A stretch of 63,888 nt of DNA, counting the filler, from Globobulimina sp. (lineage: Eukaryota), in assembly GCA_003354225.1 (NCBI GenBank). It is 46 parts of 46 records of this genome, joined end to end, with 100 filler letters (N's around TTAATTAATTAA, not from the genome) between each part and the next. Parts side by side here need not be neighbours in the genome. Positions count along the whole stretch, not along the records: positions 41,744 to 43,034 come from PIVH01019321.1; 45 more parts are not named here. One strand, given 5' to 3'. The stretch's first letter is position 1, and each line of letters opens with the position of its first letter. The translations under genes and the position numbers were made by a program. Below, one piece after another: positions 15,313-54,158 of the stretch. Below the pieces are notes generated by a model that was not told where the DNA came from, searched no databases, and was given only the letters and a program-made list of their open reading frames with translations.

Positions 15313-16604
15313 GTTATCCAAACCCGGCATTTGTCCATAAGACGATGCCAATGCACCTAACTGTGCCTGCGAGCCATACATTTGTTTGTACTGCAACCAA
15401 TACTGATATCTCCTCCATTTGACCACGAATTGGCGCTGATAATTTTGCCAATATTGTGGTGTAATCTGTCCATTTTGCAACATCTGCCAAGTAGCTGCAT
15501 ATTGTTGCTGTGCCATTTGATATTGTTGCGCGAAATTCGATTGCTGCGCTCTATATTGCGCCCACTGAGTAGCATACAATTCTTGCGCATTCATCATACT
15601 TTTTTTGTATCTATGTCGTTTTTCTTGTATATGGCTAGCACCAGAACCCAATGCTGGAGGAGCTGGCGGCAAAATCAGTTCATCCGCATCATCATCTTCA
15701 TGTTTCTCATAAAATGGAGCGGGTGGCGGTGGTGGAAGTGCTGGCAAATCCGGATGTAATTCTACCTGTTTTTCCTCCTCTTTCTCTTCCTTCATTTCCT
15801 ATGCACATAAAATACAAATAATACGCTTACATTTTGTACAATGAATGCATTCCTATTGCTATTTACATGCAAAATGCGCATATTATTTGCATTTTATCTC
15901 ACCTTTTCTTCCTGGCCGTCGTCAGTGTGCTTCTCCAACAGTTTCTTGTGTCTCTCCCGCCGCTTCTGTTTCGCCACTTGTTTCTCCATCTCCTTCATCT
16001 GTACGCCCGGCGCCTGCTTGTTAGCAGTGTGTTGACCCAATGATTCCTTCAATAATCCAACTTTATCCATCAACTCCTTGCTCGCCTTATGCTCACTGCT
16101 CCCTCCAACCAATGCCGCCTCCTCCTCCTCCTCCAACAACCTCGTCACCTCTTCCTCGTGCTCCTCCTCCTTCTTCTTCGCAGCTAGCAAGGCCATACGC
16201 GCTGCTTTCCCGGCCTGGACATACCTTTTCAGCGAAGTCTCGTCAATGTGGACCGGCTGATAATGCAAGACACCATCATCAATGTCATACAATTTGTCAA
16301 TCAGAGCGTTAAACTCCGGTAGAAACTCCACTTTGTCGTCATAATCACTCAGAAAATATGTAAATATCTTTTTCAATACACAGACAATGTCAATATTCGT
16401 CTCCCGGTTATGCAGCGTCATAAACGTTTCCAGCTCGGACTCTGTGCGCACGCTCGATTTGCGTCGTTTTTTGTCGCCGCTGTTGCTCATACTCGAGTTC
16501 CTGCGGTGTTTGTTGCGTTTGCCCACATGAGCCATGGACGAGGCGTTTTTTCTGTGTTTGGGCGTGTTTTGCCTCCCACTGCGTTTGCGCTTTTTTTTTC
16601 CTTT
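15313..16604 (-). CDS. Hypothetical Glu/Pro/Gln-rich protein, partial, intron 15799-15902
   Basis: Two ORFs joined in frame by a GTGAGA...CATAG intron (EEK|EMK). Confidence 0.7.
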
Positions 16605-32006: not shown

Positions 32007-32864
32007 AACGACGAAACCAAACAATTAAAAGCCAAAATCGCGTCATCGGAGAAGGAAAATAGAGAGCTACACAATGCAAAAACGGCTAAAAATGTGTCAA
32101 AAGACGACAAAAAAAGCGATAAAGAGTTAAAAGCGAAGGTGAGTGCATTGGAGAAAGAGAATAAAAGTTTGAATAAACAGTTAAATACATCGCGTGCGTC
32201 AGAGACCAAATTAATGGCTAAAATCGTTGCGCAGCAGAATGATTATAACAAATTGCAGAAAGAGTATAAATTGTTGAAGGCCAATAAGGCTACGAAGGGG
32301 AAGGAGGCGGCGCCGGTCATGGCGGAGAAGAAAGAGAGTGTGCCGTCGTATACAAGTATCTCGAAACAGAAATCCAAGTCAAGGGAAGAGGAGAAGGAGA
32401 AGGAGGAGGACGGCGATGGCCATGCCGACAAAGGGAAGCATAAAAAGAAAGGGAGCAAATGGAATTTGTTCAAAAAGGATAAGAAAAAGGTGGAGGAGGA
32501 TGAGAAGGAGAAGGAAGTTAAAAAAGATGAGGGCAAAAATAAAAAGAAGGCGCCGCAGAAAAAAGCACCACCGAAAGGCGGCGGATTTAGGAAAAAGCCG
32601 TCGATGCCAAAGGATGAGGTCAGTGGGCCGCCGCCATCGCCGCCTAAGCCTACAAAGAGCAAAAGTAAAAGCAAGCCGGTGTCGCCCATGAAGAGCAAAA
32701 GTAAGGGTGGTGGTGGTGGTGGCAGTGATGTATGGAACGGTTATGTCCAAAAGTTTGGCTCAGCGCCAACGAGCGCGTCGCAGTTGCAAAATTATAGCAA
32801 GAAGAGTGAATTTGCTGCGTTGAATTTTAAACAAGCGCGTGAAATGTTTAATGCTAATAAATAA
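32007..32864 (+). CDS. Coiled-coil/Lys-rich protein, 5'-partial
   Basis: Heptad-rich N-part, K/E/P-rich middle, small globular C-terminus. Confidence 0.7.
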   Translation, partial: NDETKQLKAKIASSEKENRELHNAKTAKNVSKDDKKSDKELKAKVSALEKENKSLNKQLNTSRASETKLMAKIVAQQNDYNKLQKEYKLLKANKATKGKEAAPVMAEKKESVPSYTSISKQKSKSREEEKEKEEDGDGHADKGKHKKKGSKWNLFKKDKKKVEEDEKEKEVKKDEGKNKKKAPQKKAPPKGGGFRKKPSMPKDEVSGPPPSPPKPTKSKSKSKPVSPMKSKSKGGGGGGSDVWNGYVQKFGSAPTSASQLQNYSKKSEFAALNFKQAREMFNANK

Positions 32865-33945
32865 TTTTGTATATAAATTGTCCAGTATACTCTTTTTCTG
32901 GTGTCCAATGATCAGAGGTTGGTTATTTAAGCAAGTTAGCCAATGCAGTCTACGAAGGAGTACTATTCAGTGTACTGTACTAAAGTAAAAACTTGGCAAT
33001 GTCCAAGCCCGCCTAAATTAAAATCCAAAGCCCCCAGCCTATAATAATTATATCTATATGCGTATATTGAAGCGCCTGTAATGGGTTTCAGAACTGTTGT
33101 TAGAATGCAGTAAACTACTTTGTTAGAATTAGAAATTATAGCTAGTTATTTTACTTTGAAATGAGTGTGAAATTGATATACCAGTGAATATCACACCAAA
33201 CGACAGCCAATTATGCGAATATCAAATCTGACAAACCAAACTATGTTGATATATATAATTCTTCCAAAACTTTTTCTTGTCCCAAATCATCAAAATGNNN
33301 NNNNNNNNNNNNNNNNNNNNNNNNNNNNNNNNNNNNNNNNNTTAATTAATTAANNNNNNNNNNNNNNNNNNNNNNNNNNNNNNNNNNNNNNNNNNNNTGA
33401 ATTTACAGTTTTTACAGATTATTCAAAATAAAAACATTGAAAGTCAAAATTGAATTCTTAAAGGTTGTGTTTCATCGGGAACCATTAACATTTTATTATT
33501 AACCTATTTTCCTTCCTATAAACATGGTTTCAATTGACTACTGCCAATTAAGTTCTGAGCTTAAACAATCAAAAGCATGTCACCTTTACATTCACTTCTA
33601 GCCGAGATTGGATTTTTAAACTACGATAGCGGTTTCTATACGAAACATCTATGCAATATAAGCATATGCTATCTTGGTTTAAAAGCAGTCTCAAAAACAA
33701 CAGGCGATTTTGCAATAAAAATAAAAAAAAACAAAAAATTAAATAGTATATACATGTACAGTTATTATACGTGGTTTGCAGCATCAATCTGCATCATACA
33801 ATGGATAAAATTGGGAAACAAAATGTTTGTTCTTCTTTTTTTTATACTTTTTTCTGACAAAAACATTATATTAATTATATCAGATAGCACATTATATTAA
33901 CGGTACGCCGAGGAATGGGAACAAGAACAATGTGATTAGTTTATA

Positions 33946-39900: not shown

Positions 39901-40700
39901 CATCTATACGCCATCATATATGTATAATAATTTGTCAATGACACAAACAAATAAATGATTGGACTCAAACATATACTCAACAAATGGATGTGAACCCACA
40001 CGCATATTCTCCATGACAATTAACAACTGCATTCGAAGCGTAAGTGTCTGAATAAAATATAACAGAATAAGGATATTTTGTTTTTTGTGTTTTTTGCGTT
40101 TTTGGAATTGCACATAAAACGCAAATATTAATGGATTACTTTCCGTGTAGACAGTCAATATAAGTCATTTTTAACCATTCTACAAAAGTATTATGACAGA
40201 ATAACAACCCACAATTAATCAGACATATAAAAAGATATTACATAACGAATGANNNNNNNNNNNNNNNNNNNNNNNNNNNNNNNNNNNNNNNNNNNNTTAA
40301 TTAATTAANNNNNNNNNNNNNNNNNNNNNNNNNNNNNNNNNNNNNNNNNNNNGCATAGTTTAACACCTTTTGTTTGTATTTTTTTATGTATCATGATTTA
40401 CATTCACTCAACGAAACACGTTACTCATCGAAAAAGTTTCATATGAATAATTTACTAATATTCCACTGCAGTCACAAATAGTGAGCTTCAACTTTTGGAG
40501 TTAATCGTTCACCACAATAAATTAGCTCAAGTTGTGTGTGCAGTGCGATCAGCGACAAAACACATAAACAAAGCAATCGTGACATTTAATTGGTTTCTAT
40601 GTAAGTTGACTTAATTTGCACATACAAATTAAAAGAAACAAAGAAAAGTACAAATTCAAATCTAAATGCAAACAGTAATCAAGATATACAAATATCACAA

Positions 40701-41244
40701 ATGGAAAAAATAACGTTTAGCGATCCTTTGGAAAAGCCAAGTCATCGCAGTATGAGTATTAAATTGGAAATGAATGGTTTGTATTTATTCCAATCTGAAT
40801 GCAAAATAAAATAATTAATAATACTTATATCAATTTGCAGAAACACCTAAAATGCGGCGAGAAATGAAACGCAAATCACCATTACGTATACAAGTTAAAA
40901 ATGAGAATAAATACCAACACAATTAATGTGAATGTGTATATCCAGACAGTTAAAGGAAAAATGATTTATATGCTTGTTGATTTCAAATAATTTATATGTT
41001 GTTATTATGAAACATGAAATACACAGATTACGATTATGACTATTTTCAATGTAAAAAGCCATTTAGAAATCCAACCAGAAAAGAATGGGCCAAACTGTTG
41101 AGATGGTAATTGGTGAAATAACTTTTTATTTTAATGTACGTTATAATTTGGCAACGTCCATAAACCAAATACACTAATCGTGATTTTTTGTTGTATACAG
41201 AGCATGAAGAAAGAGCTGCAAAATATGGATCTCTACTCGAAGTA
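40701..41244 (+). CDS. Small four-exon hypothetical gene
   Basis: MEKITFSDPLEKPSHR / TPKMRREMKRKSPL / YDYDYFQCKKPFRNPTRKEWAKLLR / SMKKELQNMDLYSK* separated by GT..CAG segments. Confidence 0.45.
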
Positions 41245-41643
41245 AACAACATACCTGCAAACAATGTTATTTGAAATACAATCGAAGATATATAAATACT
41301 GCTTCTTTATATCATTGATAAACTCATGGGGTATAATATTTCCATATCTAAACTTTGCATATGTTGATCGCATTGTAAAAGCGGAAACTAGATGTTCTCA
41401 TTCAATCATGGACCAGCTTACTGAAACTTAGTGAAAATGAAAAATGATGCCCAACATCAAGTTACTGCTTTCACTTTGCGATCAACATATGCAAAGTTTA
41501 GATATGGAAATATTATACCCCATGAGTTTATCAATGATATAAAGAAGCAGTATTTATATATCTTCGATTGTATGGTATGTCATAATAATATGTATAAATA
41601 ACATTGTTTGCAGGTATGTTGTTTACTTCGAGTAGAGATCCAT
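41225..41643. repeat. Long inverted repeat (arms 41225-41372 and 41477-41643)
   Basis: Arms are reverse complements apart from one 3-nt vs 22-nt segment; 104-bp spacer. Confidence 0.95.
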
Positions 41644-41745
41644 NNNNNNNNNNNNNNNNNNNNNNNNNNNNNNNNNNNNNNNNNNNNTTAATTAATTAAN
41701 NNNNNNNNNNNNNNNNNNNNNNNNNNNNNNNNNNNNNNNNNNNGC

Positions 41746-43034
41746 AACATTGAGGTCAATGATATCAGACATTCCGATGTTGTTTTATCAGATATTTCTA
41801 TGCAAGAAAATAATAATAATGCGGTTCGGATCAAAAATGACATTTGGAAATTAGTAGAAGATGAAAATATGAATATGGATTATGTGGAAGGTACAGAGTT
41901 AAATAATGAATATAATATTACCACTGCGAGTGTGTGGAAAAAGAAATTATTTTTACAATTTATGGCGAAAACGCGTTATAAGTCGATTCAAAGTGATATG
42001 AAGAAATTGTTTTCGTGCATAAACAGAACAAATGCCGGAGAGTATTACTACGTTGATTCAAAAACGAAAATAAAAAACAAGAATGATGGCGTTATATTTA
42101 CGCCTGAAAATAATAATTATTTTATGAATCGAGACAGCGACAATTATAATTTTGAAAATATAAGGAAATGGAAACCAAAAAAACTAAACACGATCGATGT
42201 TAAAATTACTGTCAAATTGAATTGTTTTGATTTAAAATTTGTAGATCGCTTTGGTAAAATTAAATTGTTTTCATCTGTCAAAAAACATGGGAATAATGCT
42301 GGATATCATGGTTATTATTATGAGGATGTGGGATTTGATACTATCAATGTCGGATTGCATGGAAATACGTTGACGGCATTTCAAAAAGAACAAAGAAGTA
42401 CTTTATGGAAGATTTGCAGTAAACTATCGAAGCACAATCGCAATTTTAGTTATATAATTGTTGAATGTGGCTATGACTCAGACTTTTGCAGTTGGAAAAT
42501 ACTGAAATGGAGAGATGATAAAACAAAAGCAAACACATTGAAAACATGCCAAGATACTCGAAAAAAGATCGAAGAGGATATTCAGCCAAGCGATTTGATT
42601 GCAGCTTTTCCGACAAATTGCAAAAAATATGAGATTGTAAATAATTACAATGCGAAAGCCATAAATGATAAAATGAATTTCAATCAAAGACAAAGTGGTA
42701 AAACAGGAAGTATTCGTGACATGAACAGTTGGTGCAAATATGTGTTAATATTGAAAAGTGTAAGAACAGCATACTCCGCCAATGGTGGTCAAAAGATCAA
42801 TGTATTGGATTTAGGATGCGGTAAAGGTGGCGATTTGAGGTATTTATATGTGTATTTTTGTATAGATATTTTATACATTTTGAGTTTTTGTGTGATAAGA
42901 AAATATCGAGGATGTAAAAAATATATCTGCAAATATGTGGGTATTGATTTGGCGGCGGAGTGTATTGAAAAAGCAGTTCGTGGCTACAATAATATGAAAG
43001 CGATGAGTGTGCAGTATCAAAATGCAACATATGA
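41746..43034 (+). CDS. mRNA capping guanylyltransferase fused to cap guanine-N7 methyltransferase, partial, intron 42840-42899
   Basis: GTase motifs IV DGVIFTP, V KWKP..NTID, VI WRDDKTKAN; MTase IRDMNSWCK..VLDLGCGKGGDL|RKY..YVGIDLA. Confidence 0.88.
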
Positions 43035-43236: not shown

Positions 43237-44163
43237 TTACAATAACATTTGACTCAAAATGATAAAAAATTGACAAATATATTTTCTACGATTTTTAAAT
43301 GCATAATAAAGCATCATTACAACCAGAAAAAACAAAGATATTTTTCTTTTTGTCTTATATTTGGGAAGTAATAAATGCAAATCTGGCGCATAACCGTCCG
43401 TGTAATAGCTATTTGGCAATATTTTATTTGCTTCAATTTGTTGGATATAATTCGATTTATTATTTTCATACTTTTTAACGCCTTCGGAATATAAACGATT
43501 CCATTTATTTGGACAATAACTTATCATCGAATCATAGATATATTTATTATCAAATCTGAATCTATATTTTATTAAAATATTTACATATTTGCCATCATCC
43601 AAAATGACATTTGGTTGCATAAAATTCCCATCGAAGGCAATATTGCCTCTGTAATATCTCATCCACGTCAGGCCAACAACAAATAAATGGGACGACGCCA
43701 TGATCGCATTTATTATTTCGTCATCACATTGAAAATTACTCTCAGTTTTAAATACAAATCGTTTTTGTGTACCATCAAATGTTGTCATTCCAATGAATAA
43801 TTTATTCGCCACCTTTTCATATCCACCATTTTCTTGCAATATTTTGCGTGTCAATGTTTCAAGATTTTTGTACCAGTGAAAGTAGCGTGTTTTGTACCAT
43901 GCATCAAATAATGATCTGAAATAATCAAAATATGGTTCAATTTGTTCTTTTTTAATTTCAAGAGCTAACATTAAAGCAACCCAACTGCCGCTAGAAACGC
44001 CAGAAAAACATATTCGACGATTTGGGTATTTCTCGCGAATGTGATGGTAAACATTCAATGCTTCGCCCATTCCCATTGGATACAATCCTGCTCCGCCCAT
44101 TACACTTATTACAACATCTCGTTTTTTGGTGCTCTCAGTTTCAGCTGCCATTATGGATACCAC
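43237..44163 (-). CDS. Patatin-like phospholipase
   Basis: GGAG oxyanion loop, GVSSG nucleophile motif, ASS, FDG; C-terminal TM. Confidence 0.88.
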   Translation of the reverse strand: MVSIMAAETESTKKRDVVISVMGGAGLYPMGMGEALNVYHHIREKYPNRRICFSGVSSGSWVALMLALEIKKEQIEPYFDYFRSLFDAWYKTRYFHWYKNLETLTRKILQENGGYEKVANKLFIGMTTFDGTQKRFVFKTESNFQCDDEIINAIMASSHLFVVGLTWMRYYRGNIAFDGNFMQPNVILDDGKYVNILIKYRFRFDNKYIYDSMISYCPNKWNRLYSEGVKKYENNKSNYIQQIEANKILPNSYYTDGYAPDLHLLLPKYKTKRKISLFFLVVMMLYYAFKNRRKYICQFFIILSQMLL

Positions 44164-44525
44164 TATAATTGAAGTAAAAACTTAACGAGGAGTTTTTTGT
44201 GTATAATCTTAGTACCAGATATTAGCTTCCTTTAAATTAGAAACATTCTAAGCCAAATAAATATATTTTAATTTTTCACGTTTATTTTTCATAGTATGAC
44301 ATCTGTATTAGACTATGCCCAACTAAGTTTTTTTCGAGACCGTTACATTTCAAGTCTACTTATGTCTAAGAGGATTGCTTGCCAGCAGCGTGGATTAATA
44401 AATAGTCCTCACTCTATTGCCTCTANNNNNNNNNNNNNNNNNNNNNNNNNNNNNNNNNNNNNNNNNNNNTTAATTAATTAANNNNNNNNNNNNNNNNNNN
44501 NNNNNNNNNNNNNNNNNNNNNNNNN

Positions 44526-45738
44526 GAACAAACAATCCAAAAAAATAAATGACTCATTTTGTAACCATTTCATATTGGGTCTAATTTTCGCTAAATCCCA
44601 TCGTTCGTCTTCGTATTTAAAAAAACATTGGAATAAATCAATCAAATCTTTATCAGCATACTCATATCGATTATATCTCCGTATTACATCTGAAATATCA
44701 CCATTTGCTTCCATGGTTTGCATAAAATCATTATCAAATTCGCTTGAAATATACCACGGAGAGCCACCGATTATCATCATATACAAACATACACCGAGAC
44801 ACCTACAACAGACAGCAAATCATAAAAACAGTATGTATTCATTTAATAATATATACATAATACATACATACCACACATCGTTTGCTTTGGCATTGAATGT
44901 GTTTTTTTTAACTGTAATCTCTGGCGAATGATACTTTTCTTTACCACAATATTTATCCGACCCACAATCTGATTCCTCTTCAAATAATGCAGCCAGCCCA
45001 AAATCAATCAGCTTAATTTGAACACCCATATCATAACAAAATGTGAATTTGCCTTTTTCAGAAACACCAAATTCAATCTGAATATCATTAATTAGCCAAT
45101 TTTCCAAACTAATATCGAAATGACAAATATTTTTAGAGTGTAGATATTCAATGCATTCAATCATTTGTTCAAATATAATTTTGGCCATTTTATGCCATTC
45201 ATTAATATTTAAATAACCATTGTTGATATGCTTATGAACATTGACAATAAAATCAAACAAATTATGCCCACCATCCTCCATAACAAGATAATAATTAATG
45301 TTGCTGTACAAATATATTTATATGTAGTTAAATGTTCTATGCGTACGTATACAGTCAACAGTACCTTTTCAAGAAATCAATATATTTTATGATTGAACGT
45401 GGGCATTTTTTATCTTTGGCTAAAGATTTTAAAAGTTGCCTTTCCATTAAAATATTTTCTGAAACCTTTATATGCGACCCGTCTCTTTTGGTAGTTATTG
45501 ACAGAGAATGCAACTCTCGATTGGCTACTTTGACGACAACATTTTTATGTGTATGTTGTTGCACCGCTTTCCACACTGAGCCTGAAAGGAGAATGATTGA
45601 TATGATTTGAGATAAAACAAAATTTAACCATGTAATTATAATAATACCTTGTAAAGCATCTGCGCATTTGGTGATGCCAATGTATCCCATATTACCTAGC
45701 AAATCTGCATTTGTATTATGTTGTGACACGTCAGACAT
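44526..45738 (-). CDS. Ser/Thr protein kinase, four exons
   Basis: ALQG|SVWKA, VVVKV, LVMED, CHFDISLEN, KLIDFGLA, CGK..YHSPE, NDVW|CLGV. Confidence 0.93.
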
Positions 45739-52768: not shown

Positions 52769-53082
52769 NNNNNNNNNNNNNNNNNNNNNNNNNNNNNNNN
52801 NNNNNNNNNNNNTTAATTAATTAANNNNNNNNNNNNNNNNNNNNNNNNNNNNNNNNNNNNNNNNNNNNACATTTTCCCCATCAAACCTTTTGATCAAGGA
52901 ATTTGTAATTTTCGAACCTATTGAAAATCGCCACTGCGCGATACCCGCAATCGACCATTACATTGATTACAACGCTATAGAATCGTTGCTACAGCCATAC
53001 CTAAAAAAAAACAACAAACAAATCCAAACAAAATCTAAAAACAAGTAACATAAAACACAAAACAAAGTCATCAAAATAAAAA

Positions 53083-54158
53083 ATGACAGACATACTAGCA
53101 ACACCAGACGAGACATCCAATATAAACAACAAACCCCCGCTCTCCAACGGGTCGCCCTCTGTGGCCACCACCATCTCATCCTCTCCATCCTCCGACAAAC
53201 AAGCCACCAAACCCACCACCATGCCGGTTTCACGCAAAATAAGATTACAACAAATGTTATGGCACAGTTTAATGGAAGCCAAGGGTGAAATTGTGGGCGT
53301 GACCAAAACCAATGGCGATACCTATTCAGGCGTCCTATTTGCCATAGAAGCCGCCGATAACGACACCATTGACGACCCAAATGCCATTGACAACGACACT
53401 GAAAATACCAACGCCGCCTGGAAATACATCGTATTGAAATATGTACAAAAAATGTCAGACCCAAACATGAATCCATCAGAGCGTATCCGTGCGCCGTTCG
53501 AGGAGGAATTGAAAATCCCCGCCAGTGATTTCGCAGCGTTGTCTGCTATAAATATCACCGACCACACCAACAGTTATCGCCGTAGTAACCGCCAAGCCTT
53601 CAACGATGCGTCGGGCACCAAATTGCATCGCAAACAGCGAGAGTTGGTGCGGTGGGAAGCCATTGATGCGGATGCCGGCGACTTGGAGAACGAGGACGAT
53701 TTGAATGATTTACGCAACGGTGATTATGACCAATTCAAAGCAAACGAGAAATATAATATCAACGCGACCTTTGATGAAAATTTGTACACTTCTAATTTAG
53801 ACAAAACTAACCCGAATTATTCAAGGAATTTGAAGGAAGCGAAGATCCGCGAACAGCATATTATGTCGCAAGCCACGGATAATAAGCACGTGGCGGACGA
53901 CCGAGCGTATTATAATGCGCATAATCAGCACAATATGCATATGGATAAAGATGAGGATGAGGAAGATGCGTATTCGAGGGTGTTGCATGAGGCGTCATTG
54001 TCGAAGCAGTCATTGAAGGACTCAAAGAAGAAGAATTCCTACGTCGCTCCTCATATGCGAGGGAAACCAAATAGTAACACACAGGTTTTGTTTATTTATC
54101 CTTGCACTCACATGATTTGATAAAAACGCATGAATACATACATAGAATCAAGGCAAGA
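53083..54158 (+). CDS. Ataxin-2/Pbp1 family protein (Lsm + LsmAD), 3'-partial
   Basis: NGDTYSGVL; RELVRWE; YDQFKANEKYNINATFDENLYT.LDK..H.ADDR..DEEDAYSRV. Confidence 0.9.

Follow-up and report, generated by a model that had tools for sequence, protein, structure and literature searches.

At positions 41744-43034 on the plus strand, the window analyzed here (the whole stretch of 63,888 nucleotides, linkers included) holds part of a gene in which sequence of an mRNA-capping guanylyltransferase (GTase) runs almost directly into sequence of a cap guanine-N7 methyltransferase (MTase), with a probable 60-nt intron in the second half. The window is composed of 46 unrelated contigs of 1290-1292 bp each, joined by 45 linkers of N's and TTAATTAATTAA. 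The gene fragment occupies a single contig, so the adjoining window sequence is not its genomic context. This contig measures 1291 bp and belongs to a very fragmented assembly of a protist genome rich in AT. Its frame is open from 41746 to 43034 without closing at either contig end, and the gene is cut off on both sides; motifs I, III and IIIa of the GTase and ~270 MTase residues fall outside the contig. In the list below, A1, A2 and A4 are alignments, and X1, X2, X6 and X8 are public runs whose contigs cover the gene.

41744..43034 (+): entire gene-bearing contig, with N runs and TTAATTAATTAA linkers on both sides and unrelated contigs as neighbors
41746..42839 (+): exon A, 5'-open, 364 codons, comprising the end of the nucleotidyltransferase (NTase) domain, the OB domain, the junction and the MTase start up to GGDL (run contigs without gaps; tblastn)
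41746..42186 (+): GTase nucleotidyltransferase domain, C-terminal portion (aligns with 4pz6 and 3kyh; A1, A2, A4)
42085-42105 (+): motif IV, DGVIFTP (aligns to the same motif in 4pz6 and 3kyh)
42166-42177 (+): motif V, KWKP (aligns to the same motif in 4pz6 and 3kyh)
42187-42198 (+): NTID (sequence motif)
42187..42600 (+): OB-fold C-terminal domain of capping GTase, aa 148-285 (PF03919)
42511-42534 (+): RDDK..KAN of motif VI, WRDDKTKAN, with RDDK at 42511-42522 (aligns to RFRDDKRDAN of 4pz6)
42601..42633 (+): fusion junction, linker of ~5 residues (alignment A1; bridged by four of four runs)
42634..42839 (+): cap guanine-N7 methyltransferase domain, N-terminal portion encoded by exon A (PF03291; alignment to 1ri1; A1)
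42724-42738 (+): NSWCK part of IRDMNSWCK (sequence motif)
42802-42837 (+): SAM motif I, VLDLGCGKGGDL (VLDLGCGKGGD; aligns to 1ri1 and six relatives)
42840..42899 (+): probable intron, 60 nt, GT..AG, in frame, no stop, GC 0.20 (skipped in X1, X2, X6 and X8)
42900..43034 (+): exon B, 3'-open, MTase continued (RKYRG...; VGIDLA at 42937-42954); the contig ends within the domain

Domains, junction and intron

The first half displays features of capping GTases of the covalent nucleotidyltransferase superfamily (PF01331 + PF03919), namely a PF03919 OB domain with motif VI (RxDK) together with motifs IV (DGxIF) and V (KxKP). The OB domain matches PF03919 (mRNA_cap_C) over the full length of the profile (2-115/115) at 42.4 bits, against a cut-off of 26.5, while the Pfam scan of the fragment gave no PF01331 match on the truncated nucleotidyltransferase part. 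G115 and K143 are invariant in a 30-row alignment of GT rows only (A4), and the relatives P0004, P0009 and P0010 carry EKSDG and DGE, the motif I region being off the contig here. The tblastn alignment of P0004 on exon A runs from 41773 to 42612. Among solved structures, the GTase half matches 4pz6 (E 6.4e-10) and 3kyh (E 2e-5) by sequence. Fold prediction used A4; a mixed alignment of GT-only and MT-only rows (A3) was dropped, its MTase rows being 7-14% identical. The resulting AF2 model has pLDDT >90 over about aa 80-290, with the OB domain mostly >90, and low values for aa 1-70; residues 1 to ~70 form a poorly conserved, clade-specific region. The best nine Foldseek matches (E<=0.001) are all mRNA guanylyltransferases (Pce1, Cet1-Ceg1, 1p16 and human).

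The second half reaches 42.3 bits with PF03291 (mRNA_G-N7_MeTrfase) from aa 297 (cut-off 26.6; profile 14-78/315), and its start matches 1ri1 (E 5.9e-4) and RNMT chains (~1e-3). The AF2 model of aa 295-364 has pLDDT below 60 and is uninformative. The remainder of the Rossmann-fold domain, with the cap-binding residues (profile positions ~110-315), lies beyond the contig end; run contigs extend 682-841 nt past 43034. A single frame carries both domains above their Pfam cut-offs. This frame is under constraint. Among the listed codon differences, 16/30 in X6 and 8/10 in X2 are synonymous, with ~18% expected by chance, and none creates a stop; two small indels near 41751-41759, of 9 and 3 nt, each keep the frame. 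Its GC3 is 0.30, compared with a median of 0.288 for the 29 other window ORFs of >=200 aa. Across the window, Rfam gave no matches, and tblastn with six relatives (P0004, P0009, P0014, P0006, P0008 and P0013) over the 46 contigs revealed no second copy and no further piece of the gene, the remaining matches on the other 45 contigs reaching only E 0.079 and 0.15.

In alignment A1, all five GTase relatives have their stop opposite query aa ~289-292 (DLIAAFPT), and MTase homology begins at about aa 297 (IVNNYN), which leaves a linker of just ~5 residues. The MTase relatives, for their part, start with a Met and extensions not shared with the query. The frame is open through 42592-42651, and the junction is bridged in four of four public runs from four studies (X1 record 2, X2 record 4, X6 record 5 and X8 record 7), with the GTase N-terminal to the MTase in one frame, the order seen in Cgm1. 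Downstream, the probable intron interrupts a GDL|RKY segment directly after SAM motif I, and exon joining gives GDL|RKY. Contigs from all four runs skip exactly 42840-42899 and none contains the 60 nt; the 20 residues that this stretch encodes are also missing from 6/6 aligned MTase relatives. The exact GT..AG skip in every run supports a spliced intron, and its precision suggests that the run contigs are RNA-derived. In these runs, maximum record length is 4.8-13.9 kb, and the contigs on this gene measure 0.15-2.6 kb, one of ~2.56 kb coming from X2; such sizes are compatible with transcript assemblies but are no proof of them. The frame of GTase motifs IV-VI followed by an RNMT/Abd1-type SAM motif, and the 60-nt GT-AG intron that restores GDLRKY, had both been proposed in a preliminary description of this DNA, and both are borne out here.

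It is exceedingly unlikely that the contig is an artifact, whether two genes mis-joined in assembly or DNA of another organism in the sample. A contig of just 1291 bp in so fragmented an assembly invites that suspicion, but the same junction occurs on independent contigs in four runs from four studies, which rules out an assembly chimera, and the composition is like that of the other contigs; contamination by a related eukaryote is conceivable but would leave the identity of the gene unchanged. The preliminary description had regarded the fusion as open to doubt if nothing spanned the domain junction, and on this point the fusion stands. The 60 nt might instead be an in-frame insertion in the assembled individual, with the runs representing DNA of insertion-free alleles or strains, in which case the fusion would still be real. 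Its length is a multiple of three, it is free of stops and found in none of the four runs, and the run type is recorded only as '?' or 'RNA?', all of which would suit an insertion. We nevertheless find this distinctly improbable, since the boundaries are precisely GT..AG, GC falls to 0.20, and an insertion would place 20 hydrophobic residues after SAM motif I, where none of the six relatives has any.

Relatives of the two halves

A phmmer search against 1.84 billion representatives returned 87 hits. Domain labels were taken from Pfam for 75 of the 87 and for P0096, and 12 short hits were labelled GT-only or MT-only because they had no phmmer match with the other half of the query. The closest relatives of each half are 28-52% identical to it, unfused, and different proteins for each half; the best ten MTase relatives are all MTase-only. 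No protein in this library is >52% identical to the query, so very close relatives, fused or unfused, lie outside the sample. The alignment-A1 homologue search gave nine proteins, with P0011 coming from EukProt and P0005 from MERC, while word-indexed homologue searches with the fragment gave nothing at near or longer lengths and scans of JGI metagenomes found no relative.

Trees place both halves among unfused proteins. The query lies in a clade with five GTase-only rows in the GTase trees (99*/100*) and in a clade with ten MTase-only rows in the MTase tree (100/98*), and at least two of the unfused clade members come from eukaryote catalogues. The first GTase tree kept 62 rows and omitted 12 of 74 phmmer hits: P0069, with repeat-like spurious hits, and proteins covering <150 query positions, five of them P0015, P0038, P0053, P0056 and P0082 and the other six fused (P0046, P0052, P0075, P0077, P0083 and P0085). 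The second GTase tree restored the six fused proteins, along with P0096, by Pfam coordinates and used 38 of the 62 earlier rows.

AU tests rejected a clade of the query with nine fused proteins, both for the GT part (p 0.0066) and for the MT part (p 0.0014), for groups that were defined after the trees were inspected, with an MTase segment of 123 columns only and a fused set of nine library proteins without taxon labels, in which kinetoplastid Cgm1 is not included by name. The corresponding result for P0046, the single TTM-GT-MT protein, was marginal (p 0.044). Furthermore, the fused proteins, including P0046 (E 1.2e-5), match the query at E>=1.5e-6, compared with 1.8e-33 for GT-only relatives. 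Trees and AU tests thus gave no support for common descent with other fused GTase-MTase proteins.

Origin of the fusion

We consider it probable that the contig represents the middle of a nuclear gene that contains an intron and encodes a bifunctional capping enzyme, a native fusion specific to this lineage in which a cellular-type GTase and a cellular-type N7-MTase were joined head to tail. Judging from the relatives, a GTase gene and an MTase gene of the host, once separate, would have fused end to start, with deletion of the GTase stop codon and of the low-complexity N-terminal extension of the MTase, and the event would have occurred independently of the other GTase-MTase fusions in the protein library. 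Origin within the host lineage is suggested by the catalogue sources of the relatives and by their eukaryote-like low-complexity N-termini.

The preliminary description had offered two explanations, either a capping architecture that is unusual but native to this lineage or a domesticated giant-virus gene. The first fits the unfused relatives, the trees and the AU tests. The second, by which an NCLDV capping gene was endogenised in the nucleus and afterwards acquired a spliceosomal intron and the composition of the host, appears very improbable to us. A GTase followed by an Abd1/RNMT-type MTase on one chain is indeed the architecture of poxvirus D1 and the trifunctional enzymes of giant viruses, as reported in the available portions of PMC4615557 and PMC13351356. 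The domains adjoin almost without a linker, as they do in the TTM-GT-MT protein P0046 (508 to 530 by Pfam coordinates). In addition, an ESM-Atlas feature search, which is alignment-free and here had a recognition (1858) below the trust level, ranks Nucleocytoviricota-labelled cap_C+MTase clusters first, with scores of 0.90, 0.88 and 0.87. This search is the sole lead toward viral capping enzymes, to which our tests found no sequence affinity. Both halves fall inside strongly supported unfused clades, grouping of the query with the fused set is rejected in the AU tests, and the fused proteins are far weaker matches than the GT-only relatives. The structure 1ckm, which we take to be the PBCV-1 (chlorovirus) enzyme, has a sequence match of only E 0.033 and comes 15th in the fold comparison, with Pce1, Ceg1 and human GTases first; the vaccinia D1 chain is not among the matches listed at E<=1. 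Scans of IMG/VR with P0002, A2, P0046, P0075 and P0052, which reach close relatives only, found no relative, and the composition is typical of the window's other contigs. Viral enzymes also carry an N-terminal TTM triphosphatase; the N-terminus of the query is off the contig, but its closest full-length relatives (P0004 and P0009-P0011) have only low-complexity N-termini ahead of the GTase, and P0046, the sole TTM-GT-MT protein found, is not joined to the query by trees or AU tests. Domestication of a viral gene thus lacks support, in view of the unfused clades, the AU rejection and the structure matches to cellular GTases.

The native fusion that we favor can also be compared with cellular capping enzymes. 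Like Trypanosoma brucei Cgm1, it places a guanylyltransferase and then a cap N7-methyltransferase on one cellular polypeptide, and TbCGM1 was reportedly described as a bifunctional GTase-MTase by Takagi et al. in 2007. The likeness appears to be architectural only, as sequence comparisons do not support a shared origin: the AU test gave p 0.019 for grouping the query with P0035, P0075, P0083 and P0096, presumably a euglenozoan group (a guess based on their lengths and on a P-loop domain in P0096), and by Pfam coordinates the linkers of these four proteins exceed 200 residues, compared with ~5 in the query. Cgm1 differs as well in its spliced-leader capping role, which is not indicated for the query. 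By sequence and by fold, the solved structures that match best are those of fungal Ceg1/Pce1/Cgt1 (4pz6, 3kyh and 1p16), and the MTase start aligns to yeast Abd1-type proteins (P0090-P0093) and to 1ri1, which we take to be Ecm1 of Encephalitozoon. The query has GTase motifs IV-VI and SAM motif I in common with the fungal GTases and Abd1 and with microsporidian Ecm1. Fungi, unlike the query, keep GTase and MTase on separate polypeptides, and the query's clade has a long nucleotidyltransferase insert relative to fungal GTases, the Pfam match of P0004 being broken between residues 234 and 451. Metazoan and plant RNGTT resemble the GTase half in fold (3s24 and 8w8f), and RNMT chains match the MTase start, but the partner fused in RNGTT is an N-terminal cysteine-phosphatase triphosphatase whereas that of the query is a C-terminal methyltransferase; the only DSPc-GTase hit, P0064, is distant from the query in the tree.

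Proposed function and significance

From the families to which the domains belong, we infer both enzymatic activities. A separate triphosphatase would make ppRNA, the GTase part would form a lysyl-GMP intermediate on the motif I lysine (off the contig here) and pass the GMP on to give GpppN, and the tethered MTase would use SAM to convert this to m7GpppN. The final two reactions of cap-0 synthesis would thereby reside on one polypeptide, recruited as a single unit. That the triphosphatase is separate, with no triphosphatase domain at the N-terminus of the fusion, is suggested by the nearest full-length relatives, which are without PF02940; the longest run contig reaches 511 nt upstream.

Tentatively, and with an expectation somewhat short of even, we propose that the fused protein is the organism's only GTase and only N7-MTase, so that housekeeping cap-0 formation would depend on one recently fused polypeptide. 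It could instead be a specialised paralogue that serves one RNA class, as Cgm1 does for spliced-leader RNA, with a separate housekeeping GTase and MTase elsewhere in the genome. TbCGM1, which has both activities, coexists with monofunctional TbCE1 and TbCMT1 according to the available part of PMC6057678, and our search for further copies covered the contigs of the window rather than the rest of the genome. Still, this seems unlikely, as the query branch is short (0.4-0.57) within the sole clade of close unfused relatives, both GT-only and MT-only, unlike that of a divergent extra copy, and no second copy is present on the window's 46 contigs, a tiny sample of the genome.

Eukaryotic groups differ in the division of the three capping activities among polypeptides, a classical marker. 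In the available portion of PMC2904801, microbial eukaryotes commonly have three separate capping enzymes, the metazoan and plant arrangement being a fusion of triphosphatase and GTase. TbCGM1 is the cellular GTase-MTase enzyme named in the part of the bifunctional capping enzyme literature available to us (PMC6057678). A literature search on a Reticulomyxa capping enzyme found none, and in a search for guanylyltransferases of Foraminifera the titles among the matches listed were unrelated.

Our findings provide no evidence for giant-virus gene capture at this locus. A GTase-MTase fusion of cellular-type parts with unfused closest relatives would show repeated origins of this architecture. It would also allow a natural test of whether tethering an MTase to a CTD-binding GTase replaces the MTase's own recruitment segment. 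If the fused protein is indeed the organism's only GTase and only N7-MTase, it would add one more independent origin of a GTase-MTase enzyme, in a cellular eukaryotic lineage separate from kinetoplastids and from giant viruses, and the fusion could be used to mark a subclade as a rare genomic change.

The contig and its reading frame

The window of 63,888 bases consists of 46 length-sorted contigs of 1290-1292 bp, not of one genome piece, with linkers of 44 N, TTAATTAATTAA and 44 N between them and per-contig GC values from 0.25 to 0.456. Any "context" read across its contigs is meaningless, and because the sequence flanking 41744-43034 belongs to unrelated contigs, the fusion gene has no genomic context. 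Its GC3 is 0.30 vs a median of 0.288 for the 29 other ORFs of at least 200 aa on the window's contigs, and composition gives this contig no foreign mark. The features in question are as follows.

41744-43034 (+), contig of 1291 bp, GC 0.314, carrying the capping fusion; gene cut at both ends
42085-42105, DGVIFTP
42166-42177, KWKP
42187-42198, NTID
42511-42522, RDDK
42802-42837, VLDLGCGKGGDL, SAM motif
42840-42899, intron of 60 nt, starting GT and ending AG, in frame and free of stops

A single frame stays open from 41746 up to the end of the contig, giving P0002 (429 aa) when translated straight through and P0001 (364 aa) from exon A, and every one of the five motifs that the preliminary description had read there lies in it at its position. 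In Pfam this one frame matches both PF03919 (mRNA_cap_C; aa 148-285, 42.4 bits, full profile covered) and PF03291 (mRNA_G-N7_MeTrfase; aa 297-366, 42.3 bits, positions 14-78 of a 315-position profile), each above its curated cut-off; PF01331, a domain of which the contig can carry only the last third, is unmatched. The motifs of the query, the protein read from the gene fragment, line up with those of solved capping enzymes (4pz6, E 6.4e-10; 3kyh, 2e-5), and the start of its methyltransferase (MTase) part aligns to 1ri1, presumably Ecm1 (E 5.9e-4). An AlphaFold2 model of P0001, built from the 30-row alignment A4, has pLDDT >90 across roughly aa 80-290, and all nine of its Foldseek matches at E<=0.001 are mRNA guanylyltransferases (GTases), namely Pce1, the S. 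cerevisiae Cet1-Ceg1 entry, 1p16 and human GTase/RNGTT; 1ckm, which we take to be the PBCV-1 enzyme, ranks only 15th (E 0.01). Within the stretch covered by the contig, the protein shows every feature of the GTase and N7-MTase families.

Other contigs of the window hold features of separate interest. Long ORFs with GC3 of 0.53-0.63, against the window median of 0.29, occur on contigs 15313-16604, 32007-33297 and 52869-54158, which may be another organism's DNA in the assembly or carry oddly biased genes. Contig 40353-41643 has nested inverted repeats at 41225-41643, extending to the contig end, that may represent a fold-back element or else a hairpin artefact of the assembly or the library.

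41276-41396 and 41453-41573, arms of inverted repeat 1, 121 nt, 95% complementary, spacing 56 nt
41225-41272 and 41596-41643, arms of inverted repeat 2, 48 nt, 100%
43240-44181 (-), next, unrelated contig; open frame of 314 aa resembling patatin-like phospholipase (PF01734, 27.3 bits, just below the Pfam cut-off of 27.7; E 4.9e-6)
44823-45317 (-), protein kinase domain fragment (PF00069, 70.6 bits), carrying on in a second ORF at 44478-44819 (-); the sequence suggests an intron or a frameshift between the two

Splicing, the domain junction and constraint

A search of public runs found eight with the sequence, in four studies and none on record as RNA, and one run per study was compared.

X1 record 2, spanning 42103-42837
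X2 record 4, spanning 41744-43034
X6 record 5, spanning 41760-43034
X8 record 7, spanning 42418-43023

Contigs of all four runs skip exactly 42840-42899 ("GT..AG, cut +2"; shorter side 62-137 letters). The 20 residues that this segment could encode have nothing opposite them in any of six MTase relatives (alignment A1), its GC is 0.20 vs 0.31-0.36 in the flanking exons, and its excision restores GGDL|RKYRG; the 60-nt GT-AG intron of the preliminary description, said to restore GDLRKY, is thus borne out. The kinds of run are not on record, and it is from the precise, splice-like skip that we infer the run contigs to be RNA-derived.

The contigs that skip the 60 nt also cross the GTase/MTase junction unbroken in all four runs. 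Transcripts spanning that junction had been proposed as a check on the fusion, which comes through it unrefuted, and since the junction is bridged in four of four runs, an assembly chimera is ruled out. At the junction itself, A1 places the end of all five GTase relatives at query aa ~289-292 (DLIAAFPT) and the onset of MTase homology near aa 297, so that the linker spans about 5 residues.

The fusion frame is under constraint. Divergence between run contigs and window is 1-3.5%, and the listed differences change 30 codons in X6 (16 synonymous, 14 nonsynonymous) and 10 in X2 (8 and 2), where random change would give a synonymous share of about 18%; these codon classes cover about 33 differences out of 43 in X6 and 10 out of 12 in X2. 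No stop arises from the listed X6 and X2 codon changes. Amino-acid replacements concentrate in the poorly conserved codons 53-87, which take most of those in X6 and correspond to an insert of the query's GTase clade, noted in the window at 41746-41950. Two loose ends at 41760 come down to short in-frame indels against the window sequence (X1, 9 nt; X6, 3 nt), and in those contigs the reading frame continues further upstream.

Relatives and origin of the two halves

A HMMER search of 1.84 billion cluster representatives (E<=1e-3) gave 87 matches, the top two of them GTase-only: P0003 (1.8e-33, 44% identity) and P0004 (2.3e-33, 52%). The latter has 572 aa, a Met start and Pfam matches that finish at residue 566; P0009-P0011 (585-617 aa; P0011 from EukProt) share its architecture. 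The N-termini of P0004 and P0009-P0011 are extended by about 150 Q/N/H/R-rich residues, and this clade carries a long, poorly conserved insert within the nucleotidyltransferase domain, the P0004 Pfam match being interrupted between residues 234 and 451. The best second-half matches are MTase-only, each with its own Met and N-terminal extension (P0005, from MERC, P0006, P0007, P0008 and P0013). When each half was compared by phmmer with all 94 library proteins, 8 matched both; with P0096, added by Pfam, the fused set numbers nine (P0034, P0035, P0046, P0052, P0075, P0077, P0083, P0085, P0096), all weak matches to the query. P0046 also carries a TTM triphosphatase. P0096, a EukProt Trinity ORF of 905 aa, joins a P-loop domain (AAA_18), GTase and N7-MTase in one chain, a three-part architecture that we did not find described in the available portions of the literature on bifunctional capping enzymes.

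The fusion gene is very unlikely to be a giant-virus capture, the alternative raised in the preliminary description, for which there is one weak lead. In an ESM-Atlas feature search the three top clusters carry cap_C and an N7-MTase domain (scores 0.90, 0.88, 0.87), and two of the three are labelled Viruses/Nucleocytoviricota, the phylum being known for one member each. The recognition value of the query (1858) is below the tool's trusted level, the comparison is of features rather than alignments, and protist transcriptomes are probably missing from that Atlas; we read the result as an architecture match. Five IMG/VR and two metagenome scans, which reach close relatives only, returned no relative. 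Among solved structures, the full-length relative P0004 matches 4pz6 (2.5e-12), 3s24/3rtx (6e-9) and 3kyh (7e-8), and 1ckm at only 0.028, and P0013 matches cellular cap MTases (9mg5, 6.7e-11; 1ri1, 1.3e-10; RNMT entries, about 1e-8); the vaccinia D1 chain is absent at E<=1 from the structure-sequence comparisons of query, P0004 and P0013.

The trees speak against viral capture, in that both halves group with unfused proteins and AU tests reject their union with the fused set. In a quick-search GTase tree of 63 rows, the query and five GTase-only relatives form a clade with support 99, within a clade of 13 rows, all GTase-only, with support 95; in a second tree of 46 rows that includes all nine fused proteins, the six-row clade has support 100. 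In the MTase tree (careful search, 29 rows, a short segment of 123 columns) the query falls with ten MTase-only rows in a clade of 11 (support 100/98). Placing the query and the nine fused proteins in one clade is rejected for the GTase part (delta lnL 52.7, p 0.0066) and the MTase part (p 0.0014), as is, for the MTase part, a union of the query with P0035/P0075/P0083/P0096 (p 0.019) and, marginally, with P0046 (p 0.044); the groups were chosen after the trees were viewed, and no row of the trees bears an organism name. These tests do not bear out common descent with the other GTase-MTase fusions. The other reading in the preliminary description, an unusual native capping architecture, agrees with the position of the halves nearest to GTase-only and MTase-only proteins.

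A probable bifunctional capping enzyme

This is a real, spliced and constrained fragment of a GTase-MTase fusion gene, most likely the central part of a nuclear gene that encodes a bifunctional capping enzyme. On this reading, a GTase and an N7-MTase of cellular type, both native to the lineage, fused head-to-tail, and the GTase stop and the MTase N-terminal extension were lost. As run contigs extend at least 511 nt upstream and at least 841 nt downstream of the fusion contig, the spliced transcript measures no less than about 2.58 kb, which would be enough for the absent GTase motifs and the remaining MTase and would leave little room for a TTM triphosphatase, though the contigs may be incomplete; the query's nearest relatives likewise lack that domain in Pfam. 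By family knowledge, the GTase part would cap ppRNA via a lysyl-GMP intermediate, the MTase tethered to it would use SAM to methylate N7, and the triphosphatase would be expected as a separate protein.

Trypanosome Cgm1 has the same architecture; it is reported to combine guanylyltransferase with cap methyltransferase activity and to coexist with monofunctional TbCE1 and TbCMT1 (PMC6057678). The literature examined on bifunctional capping enzymes names TbCGM1 as the cellular example of a GTase-MTase enzyme, and in poxvirus and giant-virus enzymes, as far as the available text describes them, it is the C-terminal two-thirds that match (PMC4615557, PMC13351356). We found no literature report of a GTase-MTase fusion in foraminiferan-type organisms (Foraminifera, Reticulomyxa). 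The fusion is an independent origin of an already known architecture, and the gene is of moderate interest to specialists in capping and in protists.
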